DNA from: Microbotryum violaceum
Lineage: Eukaryota
Reading direction: 5' to 3'
Length of the DNA stretch: 64,000 nucleotides
Assembly: GCA_001244265.2 (NCBI GenBank)
Contig: CDLV01000016.1
Location: 682,001-746,000 of the forward strand
Shown here: positions 1 to 51,350 of the stretch, piece after piece
Numbering within the stretch: position 1 is the first letter of the stretch
How the letters are laid out: each line of letters begins with the position of its first letter
The notes under the pieces: model-generated
Told to the model about the DNA's origin: nothing
Database searches by the model: none
Seen by the model: the letters and a program-made list of their open reading frames with translations, nothing else
Translations under genes and position numbers: made by a program

Positions 1-3000
1 AACGTGATAGTCGTTGGCAGCAGCAAGGGCGAGGAGGCAGCGAATGGAAGAGAAACGGGCGACGGGTGCGAACGTCTCCGAGAAGTCAATGCCGTCACGC
101 TGGCGGTTACCCTGCGCGACAAGGCGTGCCTTCCGCCCTGTGATATCACCCTGTGCATTTCGCTTGGTCTTCCAGACGAATTTGGAGGTGACGATGGTGG
201 TGCCCAGTGGTACGAGGAACGAGGCTCGATGGTGAACACTTTGAAATCGTCGCGCATGGCGGTGAACTCGTCGGAGGCGGCTTGAGCCCAGAGGGCGTGC
301 TCGTCGCTGGACATCGCTTTACGCCAGGTCTGAGGGTCGCTAGTGATCGATTTGACCGGCTCAATGGCTTCGAGGGTGGGGTCGTCGTCGTCGGTGGCGA
401 TGAAGGCGCGGTGATGACGAGAGAGGAAATCGATCTCATCAGGGGAGTCGTCGTCGGAGGGCTGTCCGGGGCCAACGGCGGGTGTGGGTGTGACCAGGGT
501 GTCGTCGTCGGATCGATGTACGTCCATCAGGCGGAGGCGAACCGCGGCGTCGGAGTTCAGAAGGTCAAGCGGATCATCCGAGTCCTCGATGGATGGTCCC
601 CCTTGTGAGGACGTGGCGGGAGACGAAATCGGGGCGAGCGACGGAGACGACGAGGGGCTGGTATCTGTAGAATTAAGTAAGGATCCGCCAGTGTACCCTG
701 GGGCCACGTCAACGGCGCTCATGGCAGAATCATCAAGAGGGGATGAGACGTCCATGTGCGCCGACCGTACTAGTGGGGTCCTCGGCTTGACGGCGGGGGC
801 GGGTGTGACGGCGGGGGTGTGCATGTCGGCGGTGTCAGGCGCTGGCGCGTCGGCGGGAATGACAAACTGGCGATCGGCGTCGTCCGCATCGACGGGCGTG
901 TTGACTGGTAGGCCGGGGAAGTCGTCGTCGAGGAAGGTGGCATTTCGGCCAAGCACAACCTTGTTGGTGGAATGGTCGAAGAACCGGAAAGCCTTGGAGG
1001 CGAGGTCGTAGCCAGTAAAAATCACGCGCGCGGCCTTGGGGTCGAGCTTGCTGCGAAGGTCCGGCGCGACCGTGAGCCAGGCCGCGCAGCCGAACGGGTG
1101 AAGGGCGGTGGTCGTGGTGCGTTGGCCGTTCCAAACGAATTGTGGAGTCTGTTTGGCCAAAGCTGAGTGTGAGCACCTGTTTTTGCAATAAACGAAGTAT
1201 GCAGCCGCTTCGTCCCAAAAGGTGGCCGGCAGGTGGGCGTCAGCAAGGAGGGCAAGGATGCCCTCGACGATGGAGAGGTTGACACGTTCGGCACGACCGT
1301 TTTGCTGAGGCGTGTATGGAATAGAGTATTGGCGACGAATGCCCCTGGACTGGCAGAACTCCGTGAACGCGTTGGATCGGTATTCGCCGCCGTTGTCGGT
1401 GCGAAGGATCCGTAGACGCGCGTCCGTTTCTAACTCCACTTCGGCGAGCCAAGTCTGGAAGGTCGGGAAGAGGTCGCTTTTGTGATCGATTGCGTATGCC
1501 CATAGTTTGCGAGAGTGGTCGTCAAGGAAGGTGACAAGATAGCGTTTCCCGGTCAAGGACGGAGTGGGAAACGACAGGACATCGCTGTGCACAAGACCAA
1601 GTCTCTCGGGGAATGTGACTCCGAGTCGGGAAAAGGAAGACGATGGCCTTTGGAACCAAGGCAAGCATTGCAAACAAACTCGTCTACGTCGTTGTCACTG
1701 TACCCGGCCCCAAACCCGTCCAGCAAACCTGCAGCAATCATCTTCTGTATAGAGGATGGAGCAAGGTGGCCGAGGCAGCGGTGGAGGGTAAGTAGGGGCA
1801 CGGTAGACTCAGAGCGTGAGAGAAAGGCAAGCTGCTGACATTTGGTGTGATCCGCGTCCAGGAGGTAGAGACCATCATTAACCCGTGTACCGTGAGCAAT
1901 GGCCTGGCCGTCCTTGGTGATGGCGATGCTGTCGCTGGTGAAGGCAAGTCGAACGCGGTCGGTGTCACAAAGGCGAGAGACGGAGAGAAGGTTGACGTGA
2001 AGGCCCAGTGCGTGCAGAACGCCGCGCAACGTGATCGGGTGTCCGGTGTTGGCAACAAACGGTACATCCCCCATACCAATGGCCGTGATACCGCCGGCAA
2101 TGCCGCCAATCTTGGTGTGTGCCGTCGGACGATAAGTTGTGAACAGGGAGCGGTCGGCGACCATGTGAGTCGTTGCGCCCGAGTCGACTACGAAGGCGTC
2201 GGTCGGGAGTTGGCGGCGGGCAAATAGGCAGGAGGCGAAATATCCGACGTTCGGTCGGTGAGCCGTGGAAGAAGACAAGTCGTCCTGGGCGTCGTCGCTG
2301 GTACGTGTCTGTTGGCCCCGGTTCTTGCAGTCGAGGGCCCAGTGACCTCGCTTTTGGCAGCGGCGGCAGGGGCCGGTGGGCGGATGCTTTGCACGTGAAG
2401 TGCAGTCGCGCAGGCGGTGGCCGGGGGCGCGGCAGGCGGGGCAAGAGGGGCGTCGGCGAGCATGGCCAAATGCGAAGCCGAGAGGCCGGCGGATCGGAGC
2501 TGAACGCGGATACGATCCGTTAAGGTCGTGAGCTCCGGGAGTTCGCGCTGGGCGCGCTGTTCGTCCGTGAACATTAGCCGGAAGCTGTCCAGGCAGGACG
2601 GTACCATGGCGAGGATGTGGGTGGCGAGGACGTCGTTCAGCGATGTCTTGGCGTCACGAATCTCTTGAGCAATGGCCATGTATTCGCGCAGCCAGGTGTC
2701 ATAGGCCTCGACCGAGGCGGGCATCTTCCGAAAGTCCCAAAGGCGGGCGAATAATTCGAGGGTGCGAGTGGCATCGTTCGGGGCGAAACGAGCCTTGAGT
2801 GCGGCGAAGATGCGTGGCGCCGACAGGTCGTCGCTTGGGATGGCGTCGAGGGTTGCCGAGACGTCGGCGGAGTCGATCGAGCCGACGATAATTTCCCGCG
2901 CGGCGTCGTCACGAGCGGCCAGCTGGTCGGCCGTCCACGTCGGGGGAACAACTCCATCAAGGACGTAACCACGAATCTGATTCGGAAGCGTGAGCCGGAG

Positions 3001-3649
3001 CTGGCGTAACCAGTTCGTGAACGACTTGGAGCCGTCTAGGCGAGCGTGCTTGGGAAAGACGACTTTTGATGCGGTGGTGGCGGCGGCGGCGGCGGCAGTG
3101 GGCTGCGAGGCAGCGGCGGCAGAGGCGGGGGCGGCAGGGGGCTGCGAGGCCTGCAGGGCGGCGAGCTGGGCCTGCAGGGTAGCGAGTTGATCGGTGATCG
3201 AAGACGCAAGAGGGCTGGGGTCCCTGGGGGACGAAGGCGTGGTGGGGTCGCTATTGTCCATTGTGCAATGGTGCGATGGGTGGGCGGCTCGAGTGGCTGG
3301 GCTCGAGGAAAATGCGAGCGAGCGGCGGGCTGGTAGCTCGTTGGGCTTATAACCTATTCGATCAACTCTACTACGTCAGCGATGTAGTTCTAGCCAAGAG
3401 TGATGAATCATTACAACATACCTATTCGATCAACTCTACTACGTCAGTGATGTAGTTCTAGCCAAGAGTGATGAATAGGAAGCTAACAGTGTGAGAGCCT
3501 CGCGCCCCCAAGTTTCCAGGCTCGCTCCGCGCGCCTAAGTCCTGAGCCGATGCGCCCAGCTCGCTCCGCGCGCCTAGGCCCTGGGCCGGTGTGCCTGGCT
3601 CGATCCGCGCGCCTAAGTCCTGAGCCGAGCGGAGAGTGGATTCCTCACA
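1..3649 (-). mobile_element. Ty1/Copia element, family A, copy 1 (3' part runs off the window)
   Basis: Gag ATG at 3261, zinc knuckle, protease [13 protein letters not shown]-pre-integrase LHRCLGH, integrase [20 protein letters not shown] start. 5' LTR 3355-3649 followed by PBS-like GGTTATAAGCCC. Confidence 0.95.
3355..3649 (-). repeat. Copia A 5' LTR, long form (295 bp, TG...TA) with a 55-bp duplication and ~36-bp GC-rich tandem repeats
   Basis: Matches 15174-15469 and 24578-24880, and the 68-bp shorter LTR at 10332-10558. Confidence 0.9.
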
Positions 3650-18903
<15,254 letters not shown>

Positions 18904-19538
18904 TATGAAGTTGTCACGCCTGCTCAAGCGGTGGTAAGTCTCTGATCGAAGGACCAAGGGAGACCAGACCAAGAAGTTGCTTGTTACACACCTGCTCAAG
19001 CACTACAGTAAGTTACCACATCTAGAGGGGTGAAAGATGATAGGAAGAGTAGTGCTCACCTGCTCAAGCGGTGGTAAGTCTCTGATCAAAGGACCAAGGG
19101 AGACCAGACCAAGAAGTTGCTTGAGCAGGAGAGAAACCAGAGTGGGGCCATTTGGCTGGGCCCAAGTCAGCCCAGCCAAAGTCAGGCGCACGGACCTGGC
19201 CCAGGTGCAGAGACCAGGCCCAGAGTGGGAGAGCTAAGGTGGTGAAAAGTAGGCCAAAAGTGATCAAAACGAAGAGAGGAGGATGTTGAGGTAGGTACAA
19301 GATACAAGAAGGACATGAAGGAGATATTTGATCTCACACCCCCCTACTTCGAGTATCAGGGAGCACAGATACCGAGTCGACCGCGGTGCCGAGCAAAGAG
19401 GTCGCGTGACAATGCTTTGGTGAAGATGTCCGCTGTCATCTCACCAGTGTTGATGTACTGGACGACGATGTCGCCCATGGAAACCATATCCCGGACGAAG
19501 TGTTCGCGCAGGCGGATGTGCCGAGTCCGAGCATGAAA
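18904..19538 (-). mobile_element. Copia C 3' LTR (18904-19338) plus RNase H end, truncated
   Basis: Near-identical to 7086-7721. Ends where a B LTR begins. Confidence 0.92.
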
Positions 19539-20936
<1,398 letters not shown>

Positions 20937-21371
20937 TATGAAGTTGTCACGCCTGCTCAAGCGGTGGTAAGTCTCTGATCGAAGGGCCAAGGGAGACCAG
21001 ACCAAGAAGTTGCTTGTTACACACCTGCTCAAGCACTACAGTAAGTTACCACATCTAGAGGGGTGAAAGATGATAGGAAGAGTAGTGCTCACCTGCTCAA
21101 GCGGTAGTAAGTCTCTGATCGAAGGACCAAGGGAGACCAGACCAAGAAGTTGCTTGAGCAGGAGAGAAACCAGAGTGGGGCCATTTGGCTGGGCCCAAGT
21201 CAGCCCAGCCAAAGTCAGGCGCACGGACCTGGCCCAGGTGCAGAGACCAGGCCCAGAGTGGGAGAGCTAAGGTGGTTAAAAGTAGGCCAAAAGTGATCAA
21301 AACGAAGAGAGGAGGATGTTGAGGTAGGTACAAGATACAAGAAGGACATGAAGGAGATATTTGATCTCACA
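20937..21371 (-). repeat. Copia C solo LTR, long form, without TSD
   Basis: Matches 7086-7520. Left flank is B gag, right flank is A pol. Confidence 0.92.
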
Positions 21372-24300: not shown

Positions 24301-24880
24301 GGCTCACATTTTCACGGACAACGAGGCCGCGGCCGCCGTTGCCCACGACCCCGTTCACACCTCTGGCACCCAACACATACGCCTCCGCGAGCACTTTGTT
24401 TGCGACATGGTCCACCAAGGCGATATCTCCCTCTCACACGTCGGCACAGCGAACATGGTTGCGGACATATTCACCAAGGCGCTAGGTCCCAAGATTTTTG
24501 GTGTACATTGCTATGCTCTAGGCCTCCGGACGAGTCACCCACGGCTCAATTCTACCTCGCGTTCGCGTGGGGGGGGGTGTGAGGAATCCACTCTCCGCTC
24601 GGCTCAGGACTTAGGCGCACGGAGCGAGCCGGGCGCATCGGCTCAGGACTTAGGCGCGCCGAGCAAGCCTGGGACTTAGGCGCATCAGCTCAGGACTTAG
24701 GCGCGCGGAGCGAGCCTGGGGAACTTGGGGCGCGCGGCTCTCACACTGTTAGCTTCCTATTCATCACTCTTGGCTAGAACTACATCGCTGACGTAGTAGA
24801 GTTGATCAAATAGGTATGTTGTAATGATTAATCACTCTTGGCTAGAACTACATCGCTGACGTAGTAGAGTTGATCGAATA
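21372..24880 (+). mobile_element. Copia family A, copy 3, 5'-truncated and degenerate, with long 3' LTR 24578-24880
   Basis: Reverse-complement homologue of A copy 2. INT, RT and RNase H motifs, G-run PPT, then TGTGAGGAATCC...GATCGAATA. Confidence 0.93.
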
Positions 24881-26345: not shown

Positions 26346-29300
26346 TGTAAGGCCCGTGCGCCTGGGCCTTAGGAAGAGGGGACGCGCGCCTGGGCACTCT
26401 TAGTCTCTCTCCAGCGACTGATACGAGTGTCCAGGTGAGCACAAGGTGGATCAGAAGGCATTGTCATACCAGCGACTGATACGAGTGTCCAGTGTCAATT
26501 CTACATACTTTGGTCCTGTGATCCTTGTCGTCGTCGCTCAGGTGTACACTCCAACGGGGTGTATTACACTTTTTTTTTCACACCGGTCAAAGACGCACAC
26601 TGCCACGTGCGCCAACGACACACCCACGGAACGAACAAACGACAACGAACGGTAACAGACGAACATGGCGCGTGGCAAGAACTCCAAGAACTCCACCGCC
26701 CAACCAGCGCCACCATCGGCACCAGAGGAAAGGGAGGACAGCTCGGACGATGAACAGGAGGTTGCAACGATGCCAAGGGGCATGAAGCTCAACGCGCCCA
26801 AGCTTGCGAACGGCACGAAACTCACTCTCTCCTCGATCTGCGCATTCCTCAACGACATGGACAACATGTTCTTCCAGTACCAAGTGAAGAACATGCGACT
26901 AAAGATAATGTTCATCGCCAACCACATTGAACACAAGGCGCTCAAGGATTGGCTGGTGACGGCGACGGAGGAACGCACGTGGGACGAGCTTAAGGTCGCC
27001 TTCATCCGCAAGGCACTACCCTTGGATTTCGCCTTCACGACAGAGCAGCGTATTCGCCACAGCCACCAAGGCAACCACGACTACGCGACGTGGGCTTCGG
27101 GACTTCGGGCCTCACAGTTGCAGCTCGGCCAGACCGCCCTCAGCGACATCGAGTTCATCAAGATCCTACTGTTCAACATGGACCCTCAATTGAGCGTTGT
27201 TCTACGACAGAACGACCTTCTGTTGGGTACTGGCCTACACCAAGATGATTTAGACTACGTGGCGGCTTCAAAGGCGGCGCTCCCCAAGCTCAAGACATTA
27301 TCTTACGAGGTGTTCGAGCGATTGGCAAGATCCCAATGGAATGTGATCATAGCGGTTCGTCCTGTAGCAACTCCCCGAACGCAAACCTCGACTACGAGCC
27401 CAAAGACCAGCTCTGGCCGACCTTTTGTGACCTCAGCGACCACTCGACGCAGGCCGACAAGACTCACGGACCCAATGAAGGATTATCTCTCGGAGAAGGA
27501 GGGATGCTTTAGCTGCAGACGCATCAACACGGATCACCGCGCGAGCGACTGTACAGCCAACTGGCAGCAGGCACCGGATGTCCCGGAGGGGTGGGCCGAA
27601 TTCGAAAAGAAGACGGCGAAAGCGGCTAAGAACAACACCCTCCATCAAATTGCGGAAAACTCAGAAGACGACATCTCAACGGACGAAGAAAACGAGTACG
27701 CCCCTCAGTTCATCTCCACCATTCCCATCACTCTGCACAACAACACGAAGTCAAAGACGTTGCAGGCACTTGCTGACTCTGGGGCCTCTTCCTCCTTTAT
27801 CGCAGATAAGGTGGTTGAGAAACTGGGGTTAGTCATGCATCGTCTCCCTGTTCCTACATTGGTCAAAACTGCAATCAAAGGCCAAGCACGCGCGTTTCAT
27901 GTTACCTCGTTTGTAAAGATTCCGATCATGCTCGAGAATGGCGCATGGGAAGCGGGACACACGATTCTGAAGGTGGCTAAACTGCAGGAGCCCTTGGAAG
28001 TGGTACTGGGGTTCAACTTCCTTGTAAAACACAAGGTTACCATTGACTTCGCGGCACACAAGATCCTGGTGCCACATCCGACCATGCCTGACGTAAAGAT
28101 CGACCTTCTTGCGCCGGTCTTCGGACCCCACCCCCAGCGAGCCGCGGCGAGGAATGCCAAACGAAGCGATAAAGCTCGGATCAACTGGCGTGCAGTGATT
28201 GCCTACATCGACGGGGTCCAGCAAAGGGAAACGGAGTTGACGGAGTTGCGACGGCGGGAGGCAAAGCTACGGGTCGAGTTCGCGGATCGGTTCCCGGGGG
28301 ATATTCCTCCGGTTTCGACATATGAATCACCGGTCCGACACCGAATCGAGCTGAAGGACGGAGCAACAAAACCGAACTTGAAGGGTTATCGAGCGGCACA
28401 CCGTTACCGGGAAGCCTGGAAGCGCCTGATTGATCAGCACGTTGCCAATGGCCGCCTTCGAAAGTTGTCATCAGAGTTCGCGTCCCCGGCGTTTGTCATC
28501 CCAAAGAAAGGTATGGATAAGGACCCGTCAATCCAACCACGCATGGTCTGTGACTACCGAGTACTCAACGAAGGGACGGTCCGAGATCGCACACCTCTAC
28601 CACTTCCGGACGAGATTCTGTCGGTCTGCTCAAACGCGCGATTCTGGGGGAAGATCGACATGACAAACTCCTTCTTCCAAACCAAAATGGCCGAGGAAGA
28701 CATCCGGAAGACGGCGATTGTAACACCGTGGGGATTGTACGAGTGGACGGTAATGCCAATGGGACTCTGCAACGCCCCGGCAACGCATCAGCGCCGAGTC
28801 AACGAGGCACTCGGAGACCTTATCGGGAGCGTGTGTTTCGTGTACCTCGATGACATCACAATCTTTGCCGACACCTTGGAGGAACATGAACGACGGGTGC
28901 GACTCGTCCTGGAGGCGCTGAGACGGGCGGATCTGTACGTATCGCCGAAGAAGACGGAACTGTTTGCTGCCGAGTGCTTTTTCCTCGGCCACCAGATCAC
29001 TCGGGAAGGCATCAAGGTCGATCCTGACAAGGTGGAGCGGATCCATCAGTGGCCGCGACCAAGGACGGTGAAGCAATTGCGGGGATTCCTAGGTCTGGTG
29101 CAGTATCTGCGGAAGTTCATCGACAAGCTTGCGGATTTGACAGCGGTTTTAGTCCCGCTGACACGGAAAGGGGTGCATGTCGACGAAGGCTGGACGGGAG
29201 AGCACGACAAGGCGTTTGAGGCAATCAAGTCCTTGGTGGGCAACCTTCCTTCTCTACATCCCATTGACCATTCCGACAAGGGCGACCCATTATGGCTGAT

Positions 29301-31459
29301 GACGGACGCGAGCAATTGGGGAATCGGGGTGGCACTCAGTCAAGGAAAGCAATGGCAGACGGCCATGCCGGCAGGCTATTGGTCACGACAGTACAACCCA
29401 GCGGAAGGCAACTATGCAGCCCACGAGATGGAATTGCTTGCAATTGTGGACGCCCTTCATCACTGGCGGGCGGACCTTTTGGGTGTTTGATTCAAGATCC
29501 TCACAGACCACCACTCCTTGGCGGGCTTCATGAAGCAACCAAGCCTTTCACGACGACAAGCTCGATGGACCGAACGACTGGCCGATTACGACTTCGAGAT
29601 TGTATATGTACGAGGTCCAGAGAACACAGTGGCTGATGCATTGAGTCGTTACTCTTTCCCGGAGGAACCCACAGCCGGCCGCCAGGCGAGCGACAATGTC
29701 AATGTGCTGGCGGAGGCAACTCTCGATCCTGCCTTCCTTTGCAAACTCAGGGACGGTTACCGCAAGGACCCGCAATGTCAACAAGCTATCAAGAACATTG
29801 ACTCAACACCAGGCTACTCAGTCGACAATGGAATCGCACGGTTCGAAGGACGGATCCTCCTGCCAAAGACGGGGAACTTTCAGGAGGATGCGCTACATGA
29901 TGCGCATGATGCCGCAGGCCATTTTGGACTACACAAGACGTATGAACACCTACGCCGCAACTTTATCTGGTCGGGAATGAAGGATGCATGCAAAGATTAC
30001 GTTGAGTCCTGTGCTGCTTGTCAGACAATGAAGATGCATGGCACCGGTTTTGCCGGTCGGATCCACAATTTGAATGTGCCTGACCGGCCAATGCGGGAAG
30101 TTGGCCTAGACTTTGTCGGGCCACTTGTACCTAGCAATGGTAATGACGCACTGCTTACGGTAACAGATCGCCTTTCAGGCTACGTTTGCCTCATCCCCTG
30201 CCGCACGACGGACGACGCGACTACCACGGCGGACCGGTTCTTTGAGGGGTGGCATCGACAGTTTGGCATGCCACGAGTGCTGGTCTCCGACCGCAACAAG
30301 CTCTTCACAAGCGAGCTCTGGCGAGCGTACATGGGCCAGCTGGGAACGAAACTGGCAACATCGACGTCTTTCCACCCACAAACGGATGGCCGAAGCGAGC
30401 GAACGAATCGGACCGTGATCCAAGTCCTGCAAACAATGGTCAACCGACGGCAAAATGACTGGTCAAAGCACTTGGCTACGGTGGAGTTTGTGATCAACTC
30501 CAGTATGAACAGGTCGACGGGGAAGACGCCATTTGAAGTGGTACTTGGGTTCACGCCGGAGCTGACACCGATCACCCCAGTGGAGGGCTCAACCACGTCA
30601 CAGGCAGTCAAATCCATCGTGGAACAACGTGAAGCAGCGGTTGCGGAAGCCCGAGACAATTTGGCAATTGCAAAGATCCGACAGGCCAACCAGAGCAACA
30701 AGACGAGGAAACCGGAGCCCGGGTTTGCAGTGGGCGACATGGTCTTAGTCGACTCGCGGGATCGACGACTGCGGTACAAGGCCGATGGGGAAGCACGGTC
30801 AGCCAAACTCTTTCCCCGGTTTGACGGCCCCTACGAAGTCCTAGCAGCACGACCCGAAACCTCAAATTACAAGCTGAAGCTCAAGGCGGGGGACAAGTCG
30901 CACAACGTCTTCCACGCCTCCAAGCTCCGACGCTGGGTAAAGAACAATGGGTGGTGTTCCCAGGACGAGAGGCAACGGAACCAGCGGCCATTATTGTCCA
31001 AGGAAACGAGGAGTGGGAGGTAGAACGGATTGTGGACGAAAAGGGGAAGGGGTCAAGGAAGAGGTTCTTGGTGAAATGGAAGGGGTGGGCAGACAGCGAC
31101 AACACATGGGAGCCATGCTCACACCTGGAAGACACCGCAGCGTTGGAAGAATGGGAGAGTGGGAAGGCGGGGGGAGGACAAGGCAAGGAGGGGAGGGTGT
31201 AAGGAGGGAGGCGAGTTTGGTTTAGGTGGTGGAGAGTGTAAGGCCCGTGCGCCTGGGCCTTAGGAAGAGGGGACGCGTGCCTGGGCACTCTTAGTCTCTC
31301 TCCAGCGACTGATACGAGTGTCCAGGTGAGCACAAGGTGGATCAGAAGGCATTGTCATACCAGCGACTGATACGAGTGTCCAGTGTCAATTCTACATACT
31401 TTGGTCCTGTGATCCTTGTCGTCATCGCTCAGGTGTACACTCCAACGGGGTGTATTACA
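26346..31459 (+). mobile_element. Ty3/Gypsy chromovirus-like element G2, full length, nested in G1
   Basis: 223-bp LTRs 26346-26568 and 31237-31459 with 2 differences seen. TSD TCCGC. Confidence 0.97.
26665..31202 (+). pseudogene. G2 gag-pol polyprotein (one stop at 29488, one frameshift near 30950)
   Basis: CFSC..H...C knuckle, LADSGA, YLDD, TDAS, HHCC integrase, GPY motif, chromodomain [13 protein letters not shown]. Confidence 0.92.
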
Positions 31460-34383
31460 TCCGCCCCTCTCGGTTGTCATACTCATCACCTCGTTCATCA
31501 TCCCAAAGAAGGGCTGCAACGTGGATCCCACAATTGCACCGCGCTGGGTGAATGACTACCGCGAGCTCAACAAGCACACCGTCAAAGACCGCACACCTCT
31601 GCCCTTGCCTGATGACATTCTCTTGACGTGCTCCAATGCGCAATTCTGGGCCAAGATCGACATGACCAACTCCTTCTTTCAGACCAAGATGGCAGAAGAG
31701 GACATCCCTAAGACGGCCATGTCCACACCTTGGGGTTTGTACGAGTGGACCGTTAGGCCCATGGGCCTCTGCAATGCCCCTGCCACCCACCAACAACGTG
31801 TCAACGAGGCACTCCAAGGCTTGCTTGGCACCATCTGCTTTGTCTACCTCGACGACATCACCATCTTTGCGGACACACTGGAGGAGCACGAGGCCCGTGT
31901 TTGCCAAGTCATGGAAGCGCTGCGCTGTGCCAAACTCTACTGCTCTCCAACCAAAACCAACCTTGCCACCGCGGAGTGCTTGTTCCTTGGCCACATCATC
32001 AACCATGCCGGTGTGCATGCTGATCCCAAGACAATCCAGCGCATTGAAGACTGGGCCCTACCTAAGACGGTCAAGGAACTCAGGGGTTTCCTCGGGCTGG
32101 TGCAGTATCTTCGCAAGTTCATCCCTGGCCTCACTGAGCACACCGCCGCGCGACTCCCTTGACATGCCAAGGACTCTCATCTATTGCCACACTCTGGACA
32201 CCCAACGAAATTCGCCACTTCAAAGCCATCAAGGACATTGTCACCTCACTCAACTGCCTTTGGCCGCCCGACCACTCCGCGGACGCCACTCCGTTCTGGG
32301 TGATGACTGATGCAAGCAATCACGGAATTGGTGGTGTCCTCCTCCAGGGTCAGGAGTGGAAGATGGCTTGCCCCATTGCGTACTGGTCCAGGCAATACAT
32401 ACCCGCTGAACGCAACTACCCCACTCACGAGCAGGAACTCCTTGCCATTGTCAAAGCACTCAAGGAATGGCGCATCGACTTGCTTGGCGGTCACTTCCAC
32501 ATCCTCACTGATCACTCCACACTCGAGCACTTCCAGACCCAGCGCACCATTCTCTCTCGCCGACAAGCCCGTTGGCTGGACACGCTGGCCAAATTTGATG
32601 ACAACCTTCGGTACCTGCCCGGCAAGGACAACATTGTAGCCGACGCCATGAGTCGATACTCCTTCACCAATCCACTGCCCACCCTAGTGGCCTCTGTCTC
32701 CCATGTCAAGCTTTCGGATGCTGTCAAGCAGCAGATCCTCAACGCGTACGAGACCGACCCATTCTGCCAGCAAGCCATGGCTAACATTGGCTCGGTCACA
32801 TCGGACTTCAAGATTGTTGATGCATTGCTGTATTTACGGGGCCGGCTTATCATTCCATCACTAGCCCCGCTCTGTGAGTCCATCCTTCACAATGCTTATG
32901 ATGCGCAGGGGCACCTAGGTGATATGAAAATGTACCGGACCGTTCAGCAGGCATACTTCTGGCCAAACATGTCCCGGGACGTCAAGCACTACGTCCAAAA
33001 ATGTGATTCTTGTCAACGGAGGAAGGCTCGTACCACTTGCATTGCCAGCAAACTCCACTCGCTACCTGTCCCGGCACAACCCATGGCCAACATTGCCATC
33101 AGTTTTGTCGGACCGCTTCCCGCCAACAAAGGCTTCGACCGTGTGTTAACAATCACCGACCGCCTGTTGGGGTATGTCCGTTTGGTCCCTGCACACAAAG
33201 CTGACACTGCAGCGGAGGTTGCTGCGCGCTTCCATGAAGGATGGCACCGCCTCTTTGGCCTCCCTCAAAGCATTGTCTCGGACCGGGACAAGCTGTTTAC
33301 AAGCAAGTTCTGGACTGCCCTACACAAGCGCCTGAACACCAAGCTCCAGCTCTCTTCGGCGTTTCACCCGGAGACGGACGGTCGCAGCGAGAAAACGAAC
33401 AAGACTGCCTTCCAGATTCTTTGAGCGCTCGTCAACAAGGAGCAATCCAACTGGGCGGAGTGCCTTGCTGTCTGTGAGTATGCCATCAACTCGTCTCTCA
33501 ATGTCGCTACCGGGAAAACCCCCTTCGAGCTTGTGCTTGGCTACACGCCCTCCCTTGCCCCACTTGCCCGTGTCAACGGTGATGACAACTTGCCGTCCGT
33601 TGAGGAGTTGCTTGCCCTTTGATTCCAAGCCTGCAAAGATGCCCAGGACCAGCTTGCCATTTCCAAGGTTCGGCAGGCAGCACAGTCCAACAAGAGGTGT
33701 CGGGATGAACCCTCTTGGGCTGTTGGGGATCTTGTACTTCTCAACTCGAGTGATCGCCGAAAGCGGCTCCACACCCACAAGCACCGCGCAGCCAAGCTCA
33801 TGGACCGCTTTGACGATCCCTATTGCATCATCAAGGCCCAACCGTAAATCTTGTCCTACACCCTGCAGCTGAACGGGGACGATGCAGCGGTACCATTTTT
33901 TCACACGGGCAAGCTCAAGACCTACTGCAAGAACGACACAGCCCTGATCCCCAACCGTGAACCTGCGCGACTGGGCCCAGTGGATGTAGGTGGCGAGCCA
34001 GAATACATCATTGAAGACATTGTTGACAAGAGGATCCGTGCTGGCAAGCAGCAATACCTCGTCTCGTGGGTCTCGTGGCTGTCAGACAGCGATTCATGGG
34101 AGCCTGCCGAGGCACTGGAGGATACGGAGGCATTGGATAGGTGGGAGCGTCGGAATGAGGAGTAGGATTTTCGACCGGAGGAGGGGATTTGTTTCAAGGC
34201 GGGGAGAGTGTAAGGTGTGGGCCTTACTACGGGCCACAGGCACTAGAAATAGAGATCGCACGCACCTAGCTTCTTCAGTTCCCTCCTCATTGGGCTGACA
34301 CCAGAAGCTAGTTGCAATCCATATAACTTGCACCTGTCAGCTTAGGTCGCCAGTGAGGCTCCAGAGTGATCGCGTGCCTTTTA

Positions 34384-36840: not shown

Positions 36841-39617
36841 CTACCTCTATATATATAAAAAGGTGAGTTAAGGAATGTACCTAAAATCGCTGTTTTTAAC
36901 TAGGTTGCGGCCTGGAGGGCCGCCTGGGGTGGGTCTACCAGCATACCGTTGTGTCTGCCGCACCTGTCTGTGGTGTCGGGGTTCCGATCAGAAGTCATGT
37001 ACAAGCCCTGTGGTGACTTTTGTATTTTCCGCGCCGTTCCAACGAAGCTACAGCGCTCCCAGTATTTTCCTTCTTTTTGTCGCTGACATAAAACAATACT
37101 TCCACTCATATGGTATTTAATGAACCGCAAGCGCGTGGCTTTGCATGATATTGCTTCTACAGCAGCGCTCTGCCTGACGCGCGAGGCGAGGGCTGGCGTT
37201 TGTCACGTGATGCGGTGCGCCGGCGATGTCAGTGTCATTCCGGCAGTCGACCAGCGGCATTAGGGGCTGAACAACAAATCAAACCACGTAAATAATCCTG
37301 CGTCACTCCCTCGAACCTTTCCTTTCTCCCTCTCACTCTCATCCAATTTTAGTGACACTCATTCAAGAACAAACCCTCGCTGCTATGTCCCGGTCCCAAG
37401 GTCGCCAGGGTCTCAGGGAGGGCCATCGCAACCTTGCCAAGTTTTGGGCGCGAGGGTAGCGCCGTACCATGGGCCACCATGGGCCTGCTCGAGCGCCCGC
37501 TGCTGGGCGCCCCGAGGCTCGACCCTCCTCTTCGTCCCGCTCCGATCAACAGAATCAGCCCCCGGCGCGTCATGACAACAATTTAACCGATCTTGGCATT
37601 GCGACACGTATACGAGCCTGCCGTGCAGCCGTACAGAACGGACAGCGTGGTCAGCGCGATGGCCAACTCGACGCTGGGCTCGCCCCACCACCACCTCCGC
37701 AAAGGCGAGTGCGCCGGGCTCGAATCGCGCTCAAACCCCTCAAGCCCCACGTTTTCGCAGGGCAAGGTGCGGCTACCTCCCCCTCCCCAGCCCAATCTCG
37801 AGTATCGGCAGCTTCTTCAAGGCTCGGATAGCGGTCAGTTGCTCCGTCCAACAACATTCGTCTGCAGTAGACCCACATGCTGAACTGTTCTACCCACCCA
37901 CACAGAAGCTAAAGCATTCCGCGAGAATGCCCGGTCTTACAATAACGCGTTGTCCTTTACTTCGCTCGCTGCCCACTGGACCAAACCCAAGTGGGCACTC
38001 TAGGACCTCCCGTGTTTCGTGTGTTCGGCCGCCTCTATCATTGACTCGGTGCCCTGATCCCTGCCGTGAATCAACGCCCAGCCTTTGCCCAGACATGGCT
38101 GATCGACCCGGCCGAGGCCACCGACACACGACTTCAAGGACCCGACAGCGCAGGGACTCGCATTCAAAGATCAACGCTGACCAAGCTCGAGTCCATGTTG
38201 CGCACCGGCAATCGCTTTGTGAGGGAGTTCGCATCGGCCAAACCTCGCGCAGGTTGGGATACGGCCAAAGAGTGGATCCTGCGCCTCTGCCTCCCGCCAG
38301 GCCGGGACCGACTGTCATGAACCAGTAATCCTGCAATTCCTAACTCGCTTCATTGGGGGTTGGCCATACATAGTACCAAGCTGTCCACTCCTTTCAGAGT
38401 GGATATTGTACCCCTTTGAGGTCAGCTTAGGCTAGTGGTAAAGCTTGGACCCACTCCTGACACCGACGCACCCACAACCCTCCTACATCGAGCACGGAAA
38501 TGGCGATGCTTATCTGCGATTCCGACACCAACACGGGGGATCGTGGACGTCAAGACCTTATTTTCCAGGTGCACGGTGATCGATGTCCCGAGGGTCGGCC
38601 CACTTGGCAAGTACCAAGTCGTTAGCTCGCTCCATCCGTCTGCGATGCCTCTCCGTTACCCACTGCTTTTTCCTGCAGGGGAAGATGGCTTCCACCCCAA
38701 CATTCCTCTTTGCGGGTTCCACCAAGCCAGGCCGCCAATCGCCAGAAACTGAGAGCAGATCAACAATGGTGTCCAATTGCGCGAGGTACTTGCCGGTCTC
38801 GGTCTGGATGACGAAGACGAACAGGAGGACGAAGACCGCGACAATGAGGATGAAGACGGCGAGGAAGGGGACGAAGAGGATGGTGATGGCGAACGTACGC
38901 GTCTTCGGCTCTTTCTCTGATGTTCCATTCTGCCGAAGGCGCAAGCACAGACTGACGTTGAACTTTTGAACACCTAGGACGAAGGTCAAGTAAAGGGGTC
39001 GAGGTGGCGAGTCTCGCGTTCACATTCTTTGCGCACTACTTGCCAAACGCGACGAGTACTTCTCAATCCCGCATTGCACCCAGCGTCCCTTCCTGGAGTC
39101 TGTGATTTACGGATGTACTCCCAAGTCGAGACCGATCGACTCAACAAATCCGGCTGCATCAAGAGAACCTACGCCTCACCACGACCCAAGGCATCAACGG
39201 CTTGACCCCGAACCAAATTGGACGTTCCATGACCTTGGGCTCAACGTTCAAGAATAGACCGCGCGACATCACGTGGCAGCGATACCAGGATGCGATGGCG
39301 TGCGTTGTCAAACATGGAAAGCCTCCGCTGCTGATCACGATGACGTACGACCCCGACTCACCGGAAATCAAGGCTGCACTGGGGCCGTTAAAGCATGCAA
39401 CCGTCCGGATCTCATTGCACGAGTGTTTGAAGTTAAGTCCGGCAACAAGCGACATGCAGGCTGTTTCGGCACTGAATGTAAGATGAATGGATTTTGTTTC
39501 TTTGCTGTATTTCGTATTGTGTTTTTTTAACCTCTGCGCTGATATCATGTAGACTGTTCAATTATCCTGCTATTTTTTGAATTTCATCATCCCGTTAACT
39601 TAACGGGTTCCCACTGG
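36841..39617 (+). mobile_element. Internally deleted Helitron, copy 1
   Basis: Rep N-terminal remnants (YNNALSFTS, YPLLFP.GEDG, YQDAMA..KHGKP..ITMT, RPDLIARVF). 3' hairpin cccgttaa-c-ttaacggg at 39591-39607, then CTGG. Flanked by A and T. No helicase. Confidence 0.9.
38313..38462. repeat. 150-bp solo LTR (TGTCA...TGACA) in Helitron copy 1
   Basis: TSD CCGAC on both sides. Interrupts the Rep frame. Confidence 0.88.
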
Positions 39618-41000
39618 TTGAAGCATAGCACGACAACATGATCCCATGCTTATTTCTCGACGAAGACCTGGACTGCTATTTGAACAGACGATGACTTCGA
39701 TCGATTATCGCCGCTCACCAACATGACGATCGCCGAGCTCCTCGCCTTCGGTGTATCATGTCGTTCCTGCCGACGCGTCTCTTCGCACCGAGTTGTCCAA
39801 AGACAAGCCCACCCAGTAATCGACCTACGGATACCTACCCTACCCGACTCTCCAGACCAGGGACGTGTTTCTCGCCACCGATGCTCTGATCAGGATATCG
39901 ACCTTTGGCCGTCGCGTTGACAAGCAGTACGGAGCGCTACTAGTAGCACATCGCTCTCGTCATTTTGGATCGCTAGACGGAGTTGTAACCACTGCCACAC
40001 CATTGGAGATCGGATCTCTGATTTGCTTTGACCTCAAGCGTGGCATGCAGCTGCGATCAAATTGCTTATGAAGAAGAACCGCTGTCCATAGAGGCTTCGC
40101 TTCATCAAAAAAGCATGCTATTTCACTCACATTGATGGTACTATGCCATTTCGCATGATTGTTCCGCATGATTGATGGTCGACAGGTCATCGAGTCATTA
40201 GGCCCGCCAACGATTACATATTGTCCCACAAGGATATTACCTCATGTTACCCCGACGAGCGCATAATCAGCACGTGCGCACGTGCCGAGCAAAGATTGCC
40301 GCCCTTCGGAGCGTGCCCGGGCCGCGAGCACTGGACACAAATGCCACTTGATACCAATGACTAGTGTGTCGGACCGACACAGCACCGTTCGTGACTGATG
40401 AACTACTCCACGGTGGAGGAGGGCTGTACCATTAGCTACTGAGATGTTGATGTTCGCACACAGCTATCAGACGAGGCCGAAACGCACGCCTAGTACAGGA
40501 CTTTGCACTCCGTGCCATTCGCCGCCGTTCCGCTCTGTGCTGGTCTGTGGCGGCTGGCTGTAGTGTTGAGACTGTCGTCAATTTCCCAAATTTCCCAAAC
40601 TCGCGGCGCCTCCCAAGCCGCCCCCCAGCGTTGAGATCGTCTTCAATCTGCCAAACTCCGGCGCGCCTCAAGCCGCCCCCGGCGCTGAGACCGTCGTCAA
40701 TTTCCCAAGCTCGCGCCGCCGAATTTTTCTGGAACAAACCTTCAGCTCTAAAGAGCTTCAGGGATATGTTCTCCGAACTCTTCCAATGTACCACTCAAAA
40801 TAGACACAAATCGACCCCTCAGACACCTTATCCCGATGTACACATCGGCCTAAAATCGCTGTTTTTCGAGACGCACATTGGGCTGAGCTTTCCCGGGTCC
40901 TACTATAGCGTCGGCGAATCGACGGGCTGCGCAGGGCTGCGCTAGGACTGCGCTAGGCCTCGCTCTGCGTCGCTAAGCGGTCGCTAGGCCTTGCGAGGCA

Positions 41001-45806: not shown

Positions 45807-46013
45807 TGTGAGGCCCGTGCGCCTGACCCTTGGGAAAAGAGATGCGCACACCTGGACACTCTTACTGAGGAGAGACTAAGTGGATCAAGAGGCATTGTTG
45901 TATGAGCGACTAATGTAGAGTGTCCAGTGTCAATCCTACATACTTTGGTCCTGTGATCTTATCGTTGTTGCTCCGGTGTGCTACGGGGTGTATTACACTT
46001 TTTTTTTTCACAA
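45807..46013 (+). mobile_element. Gypsy 5' LTR (45807-45997) plus C-T10 tract; probably the detached 5' end of G3
   Basis: Diverged homologue of the G2 LTR (TGTGAGGCCCGTGCG...GTATTACA), followed by cttttttttttcacaa. Confidence 0.88.
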
Positions 46014-48859
46014 CCAGTGGGAACCCGTTAAATTAACGGGATGATGAAATTCAAAAAATAGCAGGATAATCGAACAGTCTACATGATATCAGCGCAGAGG
46101 TTAAAAAAACACAATACAAAATACAGCAAAGAAACAAAATCCATTCATCTTACATTCAGTCCGAAACAGCCTGCATGTCGCTTGTTGCCGGACTTAACTT
46201 CAAACACTCGTGCAATGAGATCCGGACGGTTGCATGCTTTAACGGCCCCAGTGCAGCCTTGATTTCCGGTGAGTCGGGGTCGTACGTCATCGTGATCAGC
46301 AGCGGAGGCTTTCCATGTTTGACAACGCACGCCATCGCATCCTGGTATCGCTGCCACGTGATGTCGCGCGGTCTATTCGAACGTTGAGCCCAAGGTCATG
46401 GAACGTCCAATTTGGTTCGGGGTCAAGCCGTTGATGCCTTGGGTCGTGGTGAGGCGTAGGTTCTCTTGATGCAGCCGGATTTGTTGAGTCGATCGGTCTC
46501 GACTTGGGAGTACATCCGTAAATCACAGACTCCAGGAAGGGACGCTGGGTGCAATGCGGGATTGAGAAGTACTCGTCGCGTTTGGCAAGTAGTGCGCAAA
46601 GAATGTGAACGCGAGACTCGCCACCTCGACCCCTTTACTTGACCTTCGTCCTAGGTGTTCAAAAGTTCAACGTCAGTCTGTGCTTGCGCCTTCGGCAGAA
46701 TGGAACATCAGAGAAAGAGCCGAAGACGCGTACGTTCGCCATCACCATCCTCTTCGTCCCCTTCCTCGCCGTCTTCATCCTCATTGTCGCGGTCTTCGTC
46801 CTCCTGTTCGTCTTCGTCATCCAGACCGAGACCGGCAAGTACCTCGCGCAATTGGACACCATTGTTGATCTGCTCTCAGTTTCTGGCGATTGGCGGCCTG
46901 GCTTGGTGGAACCCGCAAAGAGGAATGTTGGGGTGGAAGCCATCTTCCCCTGCAGGAAAAAGCAGTGGGTAACGGAGAGGCATCGCAGACGGATGGAGCG
47001 AGCTAACGACTTGGTACTTGCCAAGTGGGCCGACCCTCGGGACATCGATCACCGTGCACCTGGAAAATAAGGTCTTGACGTCCACGATCCCCCGTGTTGG
47101 TGTCGGAATCGCAGATAAGCATCGCCATTTCCGTGCTCGATGTAGGAGGGTTGTGGGTGCGTCGGTGTCAGGAGTGGGTCCAAGCTTTACCACTAGCCTA
47201 AGCTGACCTCAAAGGGGTACAATATCCACTCTGAAAGGAGTGGACAGCTTGGTACTATGTATGGCCAACCCCCAATGAAGCGAGTTAGGAATTGCAGGAT
47301 TACTGGTTCATGACAGTCGGTCCCGGCCTGGCGGGAGGCAGAGGCGCAGGATCCACTCTTTGGCCGTATCCCAACCTGCGCGAGGTTTGGCCGATGCGAA
47401 CTCCCTCACAAAAGTGATTCTTGGTACGCAACATGGACTCGAGCTTGGTCAAAGTAGATCGTTGCATGTGACTGTCTGCGCCGTCGGGTTCAAGTCGAGT
47501 GTCGGTGGCCTCGGCCGGGTTGATCAGCCATGTTTGAGCAAAGGCTGTGCATTGATTCACGGCAGGGATCAGGGCGCCGAGTCGATGGTAGAGGCGACCA
47601 AACACGCGAAACACGGGGGGTCCTAGCGTGCCCACTTGAGTTTGGTCCCAGAGGGCAGCGAGCGAAGTGAACGACAATGCGTTGTTGTAAGACCGGGCAT
47701 TCTCGCAGAATGCTTTAGCGTCTGTGTAGGTGCATCGCACAATTCAGCATGTGGGTCTACTGCAGACGAATGTTGTTGGACGGAGCAACTGACCGCTATC
47801 CGAGCCTTGAAGAAGCTGCCGATACTCGAGATTGGGCTGGGGAGGGGGAGGTAGCCGCACCTTGCCCTGCGAGCAGCCCGTGCTGAAGTGTCTGGTCGAC
47901 TTGGACCTTTCGCACTCCCAGTGCCGAGCCTTGCAGTGGGTGCACACGGCCGTCTGCGGGCCGAGGTCGTCGCGGATCGAAACGTGGGCTTGAGGGGTTT
48001 GAGCGCGATTCGAGCCCGGCGCACTCGCCTTTGCGGAGGTGGTGGTGGGGCGAGCTCAGCGTCGGATCGGCCATCGGGCCCTCGTGGACCACGCTGTTCG
48101 TTCTACAAAGCTGTACGGCGGACGCTTATACGGGTCGTAATACCAACATCGGTCGAGTGGTTGTCATCACGCATGGGGAGCTGATTCTGTTGATCGGAGC
48201 GGGACGAAGAGGAGAGTCGAGCAGCCGGCTCAGCAGCATGCTAGCAGGCGCTGGAGCAAGCTCGAGCAGGCCAGTAGCAGGCCCATGGTCTCCGAGTCCC
48301 ATGGTACAGCGGTACGCTATCCTCGCGCCAGAGACTCGGCGCGGTTGTCACGAAAATTCGATGAGTGGGAGGGAAAGGAAAGAATTAGAGAGAGTATCGC
48401 GGGACTATTTACAGCCCCTGGAAAATCATGTCGTTGTTCAGCCCCTAAAACCGGTGTCGCGTTGTAAACAGTACGTCACGTGATCGACGGCGCATAGGGC
48501 AGCGTAAGCCGCGCCCGCAAAGACAGCGGGACCACGCCCGAGCGCTGTAGAAGAAGCGTCATGCAAACCCACGCGCTTGCTATACATTAAATCCCAAACA
48601 AACTGATCAATAGTTGGGTACCCTGCCAAAAATCAACGAAAATTGTCCTCGGGCTGTAGCTCGACTTTTATGGTGCAGAAGATGTGGAAAGGGTCGTACA
48701 TGACTTCTGGTCGTGACGCCAATATCACAGGCAGGTGCGGCAAACACAATACTGTAGTGGTACATTCACTATAGGCGGCCCTCTGGGCCGCAACACAGTC
48801 AAAAACAGCGATTTTAGGTACTTGGGTCGCGGATCGACCTTTTTTTTATAAAGAGGTAG
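46014..48859 (-). mobile_element. Internally deleted Helitron, copy 2 (inverted relative to copy 1)
   Basis: Reverse complement of 36841-39617 with the same termini (CTACCTCT... and hairpin plus CTGG). Confidence 0.9.
47166..47315. repeat. Same 150-bp solo LTR in Helitron copy 2
   Basis: Reverse complement of 38313-38462, TSD GTCGG. Confidence 0.88.
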
Positions 48860-48923: not shown

Positions 48924-49045
48924 TCACTTCACTTCACTTCACTTCACTTCACTTCACTTCACTTCACTTCACTTCACTTCACTTCACTTCACTTCACTTC
49001 ACTTCACTTCACTTCACTTCACTTCACTTCACTTCACTTCACTTC
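48924..49045 (+). repeat. (TCACT)n microsatellite, about 24 units, after an A-run
   Basis: Directly visible. Confidence 0.97.
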
Positions 49046-49101: not shown

Positions 49102-51350
49102 ATGTCTACAGGAGACCCTGGGTCCCCACCGCTGGCACCGCCACCACCGGTGTCCGCCACCAGCGTCCAGCCACCTCGTGACCAGATCCCGATAAGCTCG
49201 AAGAAGACGCAAGCCACGGGCCCCGCCACCGCCGCACCCAACTATGCCGCCGCTGCGAGTCAGGCGACTCAGTCACCTGAACAACAGCAACAACAACAAC
49301 AGCGTTCCAAGGCTCTGGGCAGCCTCCTACAAGCCATGGGTGCTGTACCCGGAAACCGCATGGATCGTTGGGTCCAGGCCATCTACTTCGCCGAACTCTA
49401 CCCCGTCGCCACCGCCACATCGCTGAAATTCTCGGCCTTGAACGCGAACCGGTCTGTCGAGAACATCTTTGATTACGCCCTTGAAGTGACTCTGACTCAC
49501 CAGAGCGCCTCGCGAGCGTCTCATGCCGACAAGACCGATCTCGTGGCCTGCGTCACGAGGCTGTTATTGCCGATCTCTCCTATCTGCTTTGAGCCTGGAG
49601 TTCCTCTGCCGGACCACCTTGCAGCCTATCGACCACAGATCCTAGGCGTACAACATTCATCAATCCTGCGTAATGGGGCGGCTCACCATCGCGTTACCGT
49701 TGGGTTCGTCACCGGCGAGGCACGTGACGCTGCGCTTACGACGCCCCCTGCTCTCACTTGGCGATCGGCGAAGGCCCGCTTCGCGAAATCTCACAGGTTC
49801 CACCATAACATGGTCGAGCTTCGAATCAACGTCGGTGTTCAAGGAGTGCCTTCCATGGATGCCATCATCAAATCGTTCCAATTACTAGTGCAGGACTTGT
49901 CAGGCAAGGGACATTCGTGCCAACTTGTGCAGGTTCTGCGCATTATCAGCGTGGACAACGCCTCGGCCTTTGCCCACGTTGCCGGAGACTACTCAGCTTT
50001 CCTACACTTCGATGACGACTCCCTGTTCAAACGCCCTAACACGACCTTGAAAGAGATCCTACCTTCGAGAATCGGCCTTCCCACTCGAGGCATCCCCGTC
50101 ACCGCCCTTCGCCATGACTATGAGAAGGAGGCGGCTTGCGGTAGGTGCCACTTCGTTGGTCACGTGGGAACCTGCGGACTGGATCAGGAGAGCAAGCGAA
50201 AGGAGGCTCACAACGGCAACGGCAACGGCAACACCAACGCCAACAAGAACACCATCACCAACGACACCAACATTGCGGAGGCCGAGGCCCCCATTCCTGT
50301 GCCGGTTGTTAACAGGATCGCATCACAGAATCGCTTCGCCGGGCTCGAGGTTGAGGAGGGACAGGAGGAAGCGGTAACTGGCCAGAGCGGACAGGGGCCA
50401 GAGGAATCGGGGGAGGAGGACGCTGGTGATAAGGCGGATGACGAGGACTCGGAGGACTCGGAGATGGAATCAGAGGCGACCGTGAAAACGGAGGTCATCA
50501 AACTTAAGAGCGAGGACGAGTCGGTTTTAGTGGACTGCGGAGGATCCGATGGAGAGGTGATTGATGAGGACGAGGTGATGGCGGATGGAAGGGGCGAAAC
50601 AGAAGGCAAGGTGGCGACGGAGATGGAGGAAAGGGAGGTGGCGACGGAGGTGGACGATGTGGACGAGGCAGGGGGAGCGACGAAAGCGGAGAACGTGGAA
50701 GCGACGGACTTAGGGGAGACGAACAGGCTGGACAATGACGACGACAGCGACGCAACCGCAACCGCCGCCACCGCTTCCCGCGAAACGACACCCCACGAAC
50801 CAACCCCACCTTTGTCACCCGAAACTCTTGCCAAGTCGCTTCGCGAGGGGAGGAGTGGGACAGGATCAGAGCTAACTGGGTTGAGCAGGCACGACTCGAG
50901 CGGGACCAAAGCATCGAGAGGAGGCTCGACGCTGAAACCCCTTTGGTGCGTCACAACTTTGCCACGTGGGATGAGGACGGTGAGATACGTTCCATCAATA
51001 TCAGGGGGACCGCTTCGAAGTTCAAAAAGCCGGTAATGAAGAGGTCGCAGACTGCGGCGGACCTCAGTGACCCGAGTGACGAACCGACCGACGCCAAGCG
51101 AGTGATCATCAAAGGGAAGAGCCGCGTCGTTGTCAAGGATGGAACAGAGGGGCGGAGGGTGACGAGGTCGATGTCAGCGGCGGCGGCGATGCCGGTTGGC
51201 GTGACGAAAGTGGACCGAGGGAAAGCAAAGGGGGTAGCCGAGGAGAAAAGATGGTCCGACCACGAGCCCGAGGACGATGTCCTGCCCGCCCTCCCCCTCT
51301 TTGAGGACGTCACCACCGCCAAGAGCGCTTCGACCTCAACTACCCATTAA
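49102..51350 (+). CDS. LINE ORF1 (CCHC-like knuckle, acidic tail; frameshift near 50945)
   Basis: [13 protein letters not shown] motif. Lies directly upstream of the APE ORF. Frames 49102-51036 and 50943-51350. Confidence 0.75.

Follow-up and report, generated by a model that had tools for sequence, protein, structure and literature searches.

The DNA analysed here (the window) is a stretch of 64 kb with 57% G+C and no N; it comes from a Microbotryum species and contains nested transposable elements. Microbotryum is an anther-smut fungus and belongs to the basidiomycetes. The element of main interest, Copia A, encodes a polyprotein that in protein comparison shares 93-96% identity with M. silenes-dioicae proteins, the best relatives all being from Microbotryum. 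Its Pfam domains occur in the order gag_pre-integrs, rve, SH3_retrovirus and RVT_2 (2e-57), with the integrase ahead of the reverse transcriptase, as in elements of the Ty1/Copia type. A segmental duplication of 7.7 kb (1-7722 = 11821-19539, 99.77% identity, period about 11.82 kb) could be a true tandem arrangement or an effect of the assembly; parts of Copia A and of the families Copia B and Copia D were copied together in it. Elsewhere the window holds a Ty3/gypsy element (26346-31459; protease, RVT_1, RNase H and integrase) flanked by LTRs of 223 nt that share 99% identity (26346-26568 and 31237-31459), another gypsy fragment (32138-33424), and a LINE-like element (51305-55368; endonuclease/exonuclease/phosphatase domain and RVT_1) that is adjoined by a (TCACT)24 microsatellite (48924-49045). 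A 1.2-kb tandem duplicate (54787-56024 and 56060-57304, 85%) and inverted duplicates of about 2.1 kb (37517-39620 and 46011-48222, 85-97% identical, with ORFs that have no Pfam match) are also present.

The copies of Copia A, and the parts of the duplicated LTR end in copy A1, are the following.

3355-3649, minus strand: 5' LTR of copy A1, 295 nt, two-repeat form, TGTGAGG...GATCGAATA
3420-3476, minus strand: repeat R1 of A1, 57 nt, with A at 3448 and GGT as its last bases; the proposed exon 1 ends at 3422
3409-3419, minus strand: filler of A1, 11 nt, ATGTTGTAATG, which forms GTATGT with the preceding GT and adds two upstream ATGs
3352-3408, minus strand: repeat R2 of A1, 57 nt, with G at 3380 and CTGAC at 3379 to 3375, made up to its end by the LTR end and the GGT of the primer-binding site (PBS)
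3354-3421, minus strand: predicted leader intron of A1, 68 nt, GTATGT...CTGAC...TAG
3336-3354, minus strand: PBS of A1, GGTTATAAGCCCAACGAGC; the gag ATG is at 3261
10332-15469, minus strand: copy A2, a complete element
15174-15469, minus strand: 5' LTR of A2, two-repeat form, with the intron-like interval at 15240 to 15173
10332-10558, minus strand: 3' LTR of A2, one repeat only, followed by the target duplication GCCTG
24577-24880, plus strand: 3' LTR of copy A3, two-repeat form with the same filler as A1, ending in GAATA followed by C, without AG

A1, the copy on which the original prediction was made, is part of a segmental duplicate of A2 and not an independent insertion. A3 is truncated at its 5' end and about 96% identical to A2. 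The borders of the LTR are given by A2, which was inserted into a family-B LTR: the 5-bp target duplication CAGGC (plus strand) is found at 10327-10331 and 15470-15474, the empty site is present as an uninterrupted LTR of the Copia B copy B3 (19647-19651), and a G-run, the polypurine tract, precedes the 3' LTR. It follows from the empty site and the target duplication that the Copia A LTR reads TGTGAGG...GATCGAATA, that the LTR of A1 ends ...GAATA at 3355, and that the G at 3354 lies outside. Contigs of other runs agree with these ends: their breakpoints, at 3354/3355 and 3650, lead into the polypurine tract or into unrelated flanks. In their upstream region, presumably U3, the Copia A LTRs have about three tandem 39-nt units that are 83-94% identical (3516-3628, 10425-10537, 15335-15447 and 24593-24720), with a 47-nt variant in A3.

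On the minus strand A1 reads ...GATCGAATAG/GTATGTTGTAATG ATTCATC...CGCTGACGTAG...GATCGAATAG/GTTATAAGCCC, in which the slashes mark the borders of the intron-like interval. The set of signals that had been predicted, GAATAG/GTATGT...CTGAC...AG, is complete and canonical over 68 nt. The accompanying direct repeat, described earlier as 55 bp, is present, its length being 57 nt (3476 to 3420 and 3408 to 3352), so that it extends 3 nt into the PBS. The two copies are 56/57 identical (BLAST E 1e-23) with a period of 68, and each comprises the sequence of the last 54 LTR bases and of the first 3 PBS bases, GGT, which might mark the end of the plus-strand strong-stop DNA. The branch candidate CTGAC has its A 22 nt before the end of the interval. 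The acceptor AG is formed, as had been noticed, by the last LTR base (3355) and the first PBS base (3354), the LTR end being fixed by the target duplication and the empty site of A2. Since both borders lie inside the repeat, removal of the interval recreates the LTR-PBS junction exactly, and this junction is indeed that of the one-repeat copies. AG dinucleotides end 5, 8, 10 and 22 nt past the branch A, the proposed acceptor being the one at 22; the spliceosome might use one of the three nearer ones, in which case the junction would not be exactly restored. The RNA fold of the leader (3476 to 3262) revealed no special structure (z-score -0.11). Tandem Repeats Finder did not list the LTR-end units, which have fewer than two copies, whereas a direct-repeat search did.

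It had also been proposed that an acceptor completed by the PBS would confine splicing to the 5' LTR, and base 24880, the last of the A3 3' LTR, is followed by C as stated. Nevertheless, the restriction appears weak for four reasons. The U5 of a 3' LTR is normally absent from the transcript, according to established LTR biology. The 3' LTR of A2 is followed by a G that is there by chance, since it stems from the target duplication GCCTG, and this LTR has a single repeat anyway. In Copia D, finally, the corresponding interval ends 15 nt inside the LTR, which makes its acceptor independent of the PBS.

An intron-like design of the same kind is found in Copia B, the coding region of which is about 75% identical to that of Copia A and the PBS of which is of the same type.

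19539-19918, plus strand: 5' LTR of copy B3, two-repeat form; the PBS starts at 19919
19796-19852, 19853-19864 and 19865-19921, plus strand: R1, filler (12 nt) and R2 of B3
19851-19919, plus strand: intron-like interval of B3, 69 nt, GTATGC...CTGAC...CATAG
3803-3875, plus strand: copy B1, one repeat, then the PBS as in B3
15622-15694: copy B2, one repeat, a segmental duplicate of B1

B3 reads ...CTCATAG/GTATGCTGAAATAG-ACCACTTC...CCTGAC...CTCATAG/GTTATTTGCCC, and its repeats are 57/57 identical with a period of 69. CTGAC lies 22-23 nt before the TAG in both A and B.

The third family, Copia D, was found through its repeat structure alone. Its LTR reads TGTGAGATC...CTTCATA.

7086-7520, minus strand: LTR D-a, two-repeat form, behind a polypurine tract
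7305 to 7241, 7166-7240 and 7165 to 7101, minus strand: R1, 75-nt filler and R2 of D-a
7241 to 7102, minus strand: intron-like interval of D-a, 140 nt, GTGAGC...CAG
20937-21371, minus strand: LTR D-c, two-repeat form, with R1 at 21156 to 21092 and R2 at 21016 to 20952
9987-10281, minus strand: LTR D-b, one-repeat form

The repeats of D-a and D-c are 65 nt long and 140 nt apart (64/65 and 63/65 identical). The final base of repeat 1 opens the donor GTGAGC, and CAG/G closes repeat 2, 15 nt before the LTR end; a CTRAY branch was not found in D under the strict pattern. The D filler shows no significant similarity to the A or B unit (p 0.47 and 0.77). D-a and D-b flank a truncated internal region, which runs from the integrase C-terminus to the reverse transcriptase; over 285 nt their identity is 99.6%. 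With unequal repeat numbers and without a matching target duplication, they may or may not stem from one insertion.

Three Copia families thus carry an unstable duplication of the LTR end with the signals of a short fungal intron, the branch signal being strict in A and B only. The extension of this intron-like design to a second (B) and a third (D) family is what is new here. We interpret the unit as a candidate leader intron that arose by duplication of the R-U5 end, a reading that we hold with middling confidence and in which splicing is predicted from the signals.

The instability of the unit is evident from its distribution. One-repeat copies exist in all three families (the A2 3' LTR, B1/B2 and D-b), and one-repeat DNA copies with the restored junction are present in B, probably also in A. 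Such DNA copies are not to be credited to splicing, because any 68-nt deletion within the direct repeat gives the spliced sequence. According to the established model, moreover, both U5 copies of a new insertion derive from one strong-stop DNA. The two-repeat 5' LTR and one-repeat 3' LTR of A2 form a combination that splicing cannot produce and that the model derives neither from a spliced nor from an unspliced RNA, and another process (template switching, slippage or recombination) must therefore change the repeat number. In line with this, among the contigs of run X14 one joint skips 67 nt and another goes back 69 nt, which is what an unstable tandem repeat would give if it existed in forms of 1, 2 and 3 units; the compared runs are contigs assembled from 31-letter words, which cannot bridge a 57-nt repeat.

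These observations also suit the main alternative explanation, which we consider possible though doubtful: a neutral, unstable tandem duplication made by reverse transcriptase or by host replication and repair, of which units are gained and lost by template switching, which is spliced not at all or at the level of noise, and of which the signals have no role. The differing repeat number, between the two LTRs of A2 and among the copies of all three families, agrees with it, as do the X14 joints, which fit 1- and 3-unit forms. The presumed U3 part of the A LTRs likewise has other tandem repeats, of 39-nt units, and retroviral reverse transcriptases are described as efficiently deleting sequence between direct repeats (PMC3678115, PMC3187697).

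Close direct repeats (at least 30 nt, within 300 nt) form 8 families in the 64 kb, of which 4 are the LTR-end pairs of Copia A, B and D; the remaining 4 are a microsatellite, a coding repeat and two families of 39-nt repeats in the presumed U3 part of the A LTR. For the chance test, 20,000 duplications of equal geometry were simulated from the sequence of the window. A junction-restoring GTNNGY...YAG intron was obtained in 1.3% of the cases for the 57+11 geometry and in 1.5% for the 65+75 geometry; with a CTRAY branch 8-45 nt upstream in addition the figures were 0.32% and 0.30%, and for a donor situated in the final three bases of the repeat 0.075% and 0.08%, respectively. A and B show all three features, whereas D shows the first and the third and lacks the strict branch. 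GTNNGY, the donor consensus of the basidiomycete literature and not one derived from this host, is matched by GTATGT (A), GTATGC (B) and GTGAGC (D). For A and B the simulation overstates the case, because the LTR end ...ATA and the PBS start GGT give AG/GT to any duplication that spans the junction; in these two families the neutral duplication has its AG/GT for free. Copia D, on the other hand, is a fair replicate for the test since it was found by its repeat alone, and its independent possession of a GTNNGY donor at the edge of the repeat together with a terminal CAG (1.5% or 0.08% of the simulated cases) argues against a duplication in which the signals are accidental.

A second argument comes from the relation between A and B. 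Their repeats are only 59% identical, but across the junction and the filler 14/17 columns match, and of 20,000 random 12-mers of the window only 14 equalled the B filler in their alignment with the A filler. The homology of the two fillers indicates that the two-repeat design predates the split between A and B. A and B therefore share ancestry and are not independent cases. A contig of another species (run X17, read as reverse complement) contains a third variant of the filler, in which AG/GTATGT is kept. Within single elements, the identity of the repeats ranges from 52/54 LTR bases (A3 3' LTR; 53/57 with the three flanking bases) to 57/57. Near-identical copies within an element despite the old split between A and B point to concerted evolution. 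The conservation of GTATG in the homologous fillers of A and B speaks against neutrality, and so does the survival of the two-repeat form since before the split: provided that the unit is often lost and that a one-repeat copy cannot regain the filler, this survival suggests that transposition of the two-repeat form at least equals that of the one-repeat form.

The similarity of the filler to an LTR start suggests another origin of the unit, namely from an LTR-LTR junction of a circle-type or tandem LTR. Copy 1 with GGT would then represent the end of U5 plus three bases of the PBS, and the filler with copy 2 a strongly shortened second LTR that starts TGTTG.... GTATGT would have arisen incidentally where ...GGT and TGT... 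were joined with one base between them. The comparison involves a further family of the window.

58267-62740, minus strand: Copia C, full-length, with LTRs of 172 nt that are 96% identical and flanks GAGTC/GAGTT

Copia C has a PBS of the Copia A/B type (GGTTACGAGCCCAACC) and no duplication of the LTR end. Its LTR start, TGTTGAAGTAAAT, resembles the fillers of A and B (A filler TGTTGTAATGA, with a TGTTGAAATG-type variant in a related species), and in a search of the window for templates of the fillers it was the only match besides the known copies. The B filler together with R2 can be aligned with the start of the B LTR in 18/23 columns (p 0.004 and 0.025), and in A as in B the repeat reaches exactly three bases into the PBS. 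Among 12 tests of fillers against LTR starts, however, B against B alone reached 0.004 (A against C gave 0.034), and against whole LTRs the p values were 0.37 for A and 0.12 for D. The junction origin also leaves unexplained why copies 1 and 2 are identical while the start of the supposed second LTR has diverged, and why the D filler starts like a donor. We regard it as quite unlikely; as it concerns the origin only, it is compatible with splicing.

The conservation of the filler between A and B might also reflect some other cis signal, for instance one for 3'-end formation in the 3' LTR (UAUGU and an A-rich word), with copy 1 as R and the filler plus copy 2 as U5. The filler holds words of the TATGT/TGTAA type, which may resemble the efficiency elements of fungal 3' ends. 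However, the filler is entirely missing from LTRs of the one-repeat form, among them the 3' LTR of A2, a complete element, and the D filler is unrelated (p 0.47), which makes a signal of this kind highly improbable.

The PBS next to the duplicated end deserves separate description. It starts with GGTTAT..GCCCAAC and not with TGG. The variants at 3336-3354, 3857-3875 and 62558-62575 (TATAAGCCC, TATTTGCCC and TACGAGCCC) vary at two to three sites, which are predicted to lie opposite the anticodon loop of a tRNA, with conserved flanks; priming by the internal, anticodon-loop part of the initiator tRNA is known of Copia/Ty5-type elements (PMC5371799). No tRNA gene was found in the 64-kb window. 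A metagenome scan with the LTR-end/PBS pattern gave at least 120 matches in at least 119 loci, most of them by chance. Among the matches listed the commonest filling of the pattern was TTATGAGCCCAAC (25 of 120), the complement of which holds CAT; none of the matches listed fell within a tRNA gene, was accompanied within 200 nt by a second, tandem copy of its last 28 nt, or belonged to a relative of these Copia elements.

Leaders that lack the unit, 147 nt long in A and 82 nt in B, have no ATG before gag. With the fillers, one or two tiny upstream ORFs appear in the leader; these read ATG TTG TAA in A, ATG CTG AAA TAG in B and ATG TGG TAA in D. Each repeat starts with YA and is preceded by a CT-rich tract, and the start of repeat 1 might be the start of transcription.

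Taking these features together, the proposed leader intron can be outlined as follows. The 68 nt would be the downstream unit of a duplicated R-U5 end in a Ty1/Copia LTR, joined to copy 1 by the 11-nt filler. Duplication of the LTR-PBS junction ...ATAG/GT would have placed AG/GT at the ends of both copies, the filler completing GTATGT and copy 2 supplying CTGAC and the TAG acceptor. Transcripts of the 5' LTR, if they start upstream of copy 1 as we suppose, would be partly spliced; with a transcription start downstream of 3421 there would be nothing to splice. If the last AG is used, the spliced RNA would have the leader of a one-repeat element, without upstream ATG, and the unspliced RNA would carry the unit to the progeny. 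Template switching of the reverse transcriptase from one copy to the other, or among spliced and unspliced RNAs, may keep the copies near-identical; such switching would often delete the unit and sometimes add one, to give a mixture of one- and two-repeat LTRs. A benefit might lie in intron-dependent accumulation of the mRNA or in removal of the upstream ATGs, and a spliced, translated pool next to an unspliced, packaged pool would be a reasonable model. For C. neoformans, another basidiomycete, a mean intron length of 56 nt is given, and splicing works best at 40-100 nt, the usual size range (PMC11913375). Removal of introns greatly lowers mRNA accumulation in the same species (PMC3744415).

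A more far-reaching version of the proposed leader intron is that the intron renews itself. Its removal would return the ancestral leader, and co-packaged spliced and unspliced RNAs would recombine during minus-strand synthesis, so that copy 2 is overwritten with copy 1 while intron-less one-repeat progeny recur. Overwriting of copy 2 by copy 1 would account for the identity of 96-100% within an element against 59% between the families. The two-repeat masters would be kept by a promoter-proximal intron that raises mRNA accumulation or removes upstream ATGs, with the unspliced pool as the genome. We consider this version rather unlikely.

Among the papers listed on introns in LTR, U5 or R-U5, as represented by titles and the opening parts of abstracts, no U5 intron of a retrotransposon was found, and the titles and abstract openings of the Microbotryum transposon papers listed contain no pointer to such an intron. 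The passages of PMC4469406 on intron, splice and copia do not mention the LTR-end unit, although element annotations may be contained in supplements; the paper describes public Microbotryum RNA-seq data. If the unit is spliced, it shows how an intron persists in a retrotransposon, an element that loses its introns whenever spliced RNA is copied. It would then be a natural, recurrent and still polymorphic case of intron birth by duplication, adjoining a primer-binding site, and the one-, two- and three-unit forms would be a readable record of template switching in reverse transcription. If it is not spliced, the unit is an ordinary unstable repeat of the LTR, and its splice-like look is a warning for intron calls made from sequence only.

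The candidate may be compared first with introns born by tandem duplication of a segment that contains AGGT, as described by Hellsten et al. 2011 (PMC3265369) and for a potato RdRp gene (PMC4974935). As in those introns, so far as they are characterized in the accounts cited, direct repeats flank the interval, the predicted donor and acceptor are two copies of one AGGT, and removal restores the sequence as it was before the duplication. The one-repeat copies B1, D-b and the A2 3' LTR show this restored single-copy form. Unlike the introns in those accounts, the unit lies in the non-coding R-U5 leader next to the PBS, is polymorphic, occurs in three families and has splicing that is predicted only; and unlike in a plain head-to-tail duplication of AGGT, the copies are separated by fillers of 11 (A), 12 (B) and 75 nt (D).

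The leader intron of HIV-2 lies in R-U5, upstream of the PBS. This 5'-UTR intron of HIV-2/SIV measures 140 nt, and its removal is reported to give a better-translated mRNA with enhanced Gag translation and an unchanged coding region (PMC3315320, citing Strong et al. 2009); the same source has spliced genome-length RNA of HIV-2 excluded from the particles. The likeness, as far as that account goes, is a 5' leader intron in an element that is reverse-transcribed, for which the fungal Copia unit is a candidate. HIV-2/SIV, in contrast, is a primate retrovirus, its intron as described there is not a duplicated U5, and the fungal elements are known from sequence alone. If the unit is spliced, a fungal Copia element would have in it a simple means of switching between RNA for translation and RNA for packaging, in parallel to the leader intron of HIV-2.

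Drosophila copia has a spliced gag mRNA. For BARE of barley, separate RNA pools for translation and for packaging are described (PMC3735527). Both, by these descriptions, are Ty1/Copia elements with spliced and unspliced RNA pools of different fates; their introns remove coding sequence to yield a Gag-only mRNA, whereas the fungal unit would remove 68-140 nt of leader. With the template-switching systems of reverse transcriptase, as portrayed in PMC3187697 and PMC3678115, the fungal elements share near-identical, close repeats, the number of which varies between copies and between the LTRs of one element. Template switching of the kind portrayed there would by itself not predict that two unrelated fillers both have a donor hexamer at the edge of the repeat, or that the two-repeat form persists for long. 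The closest known kinds, judged from the accounts cited, are thus the introns born by duplication and the leader introns of retroviruses, and the unit described here would be a variant of these rather than a new category.
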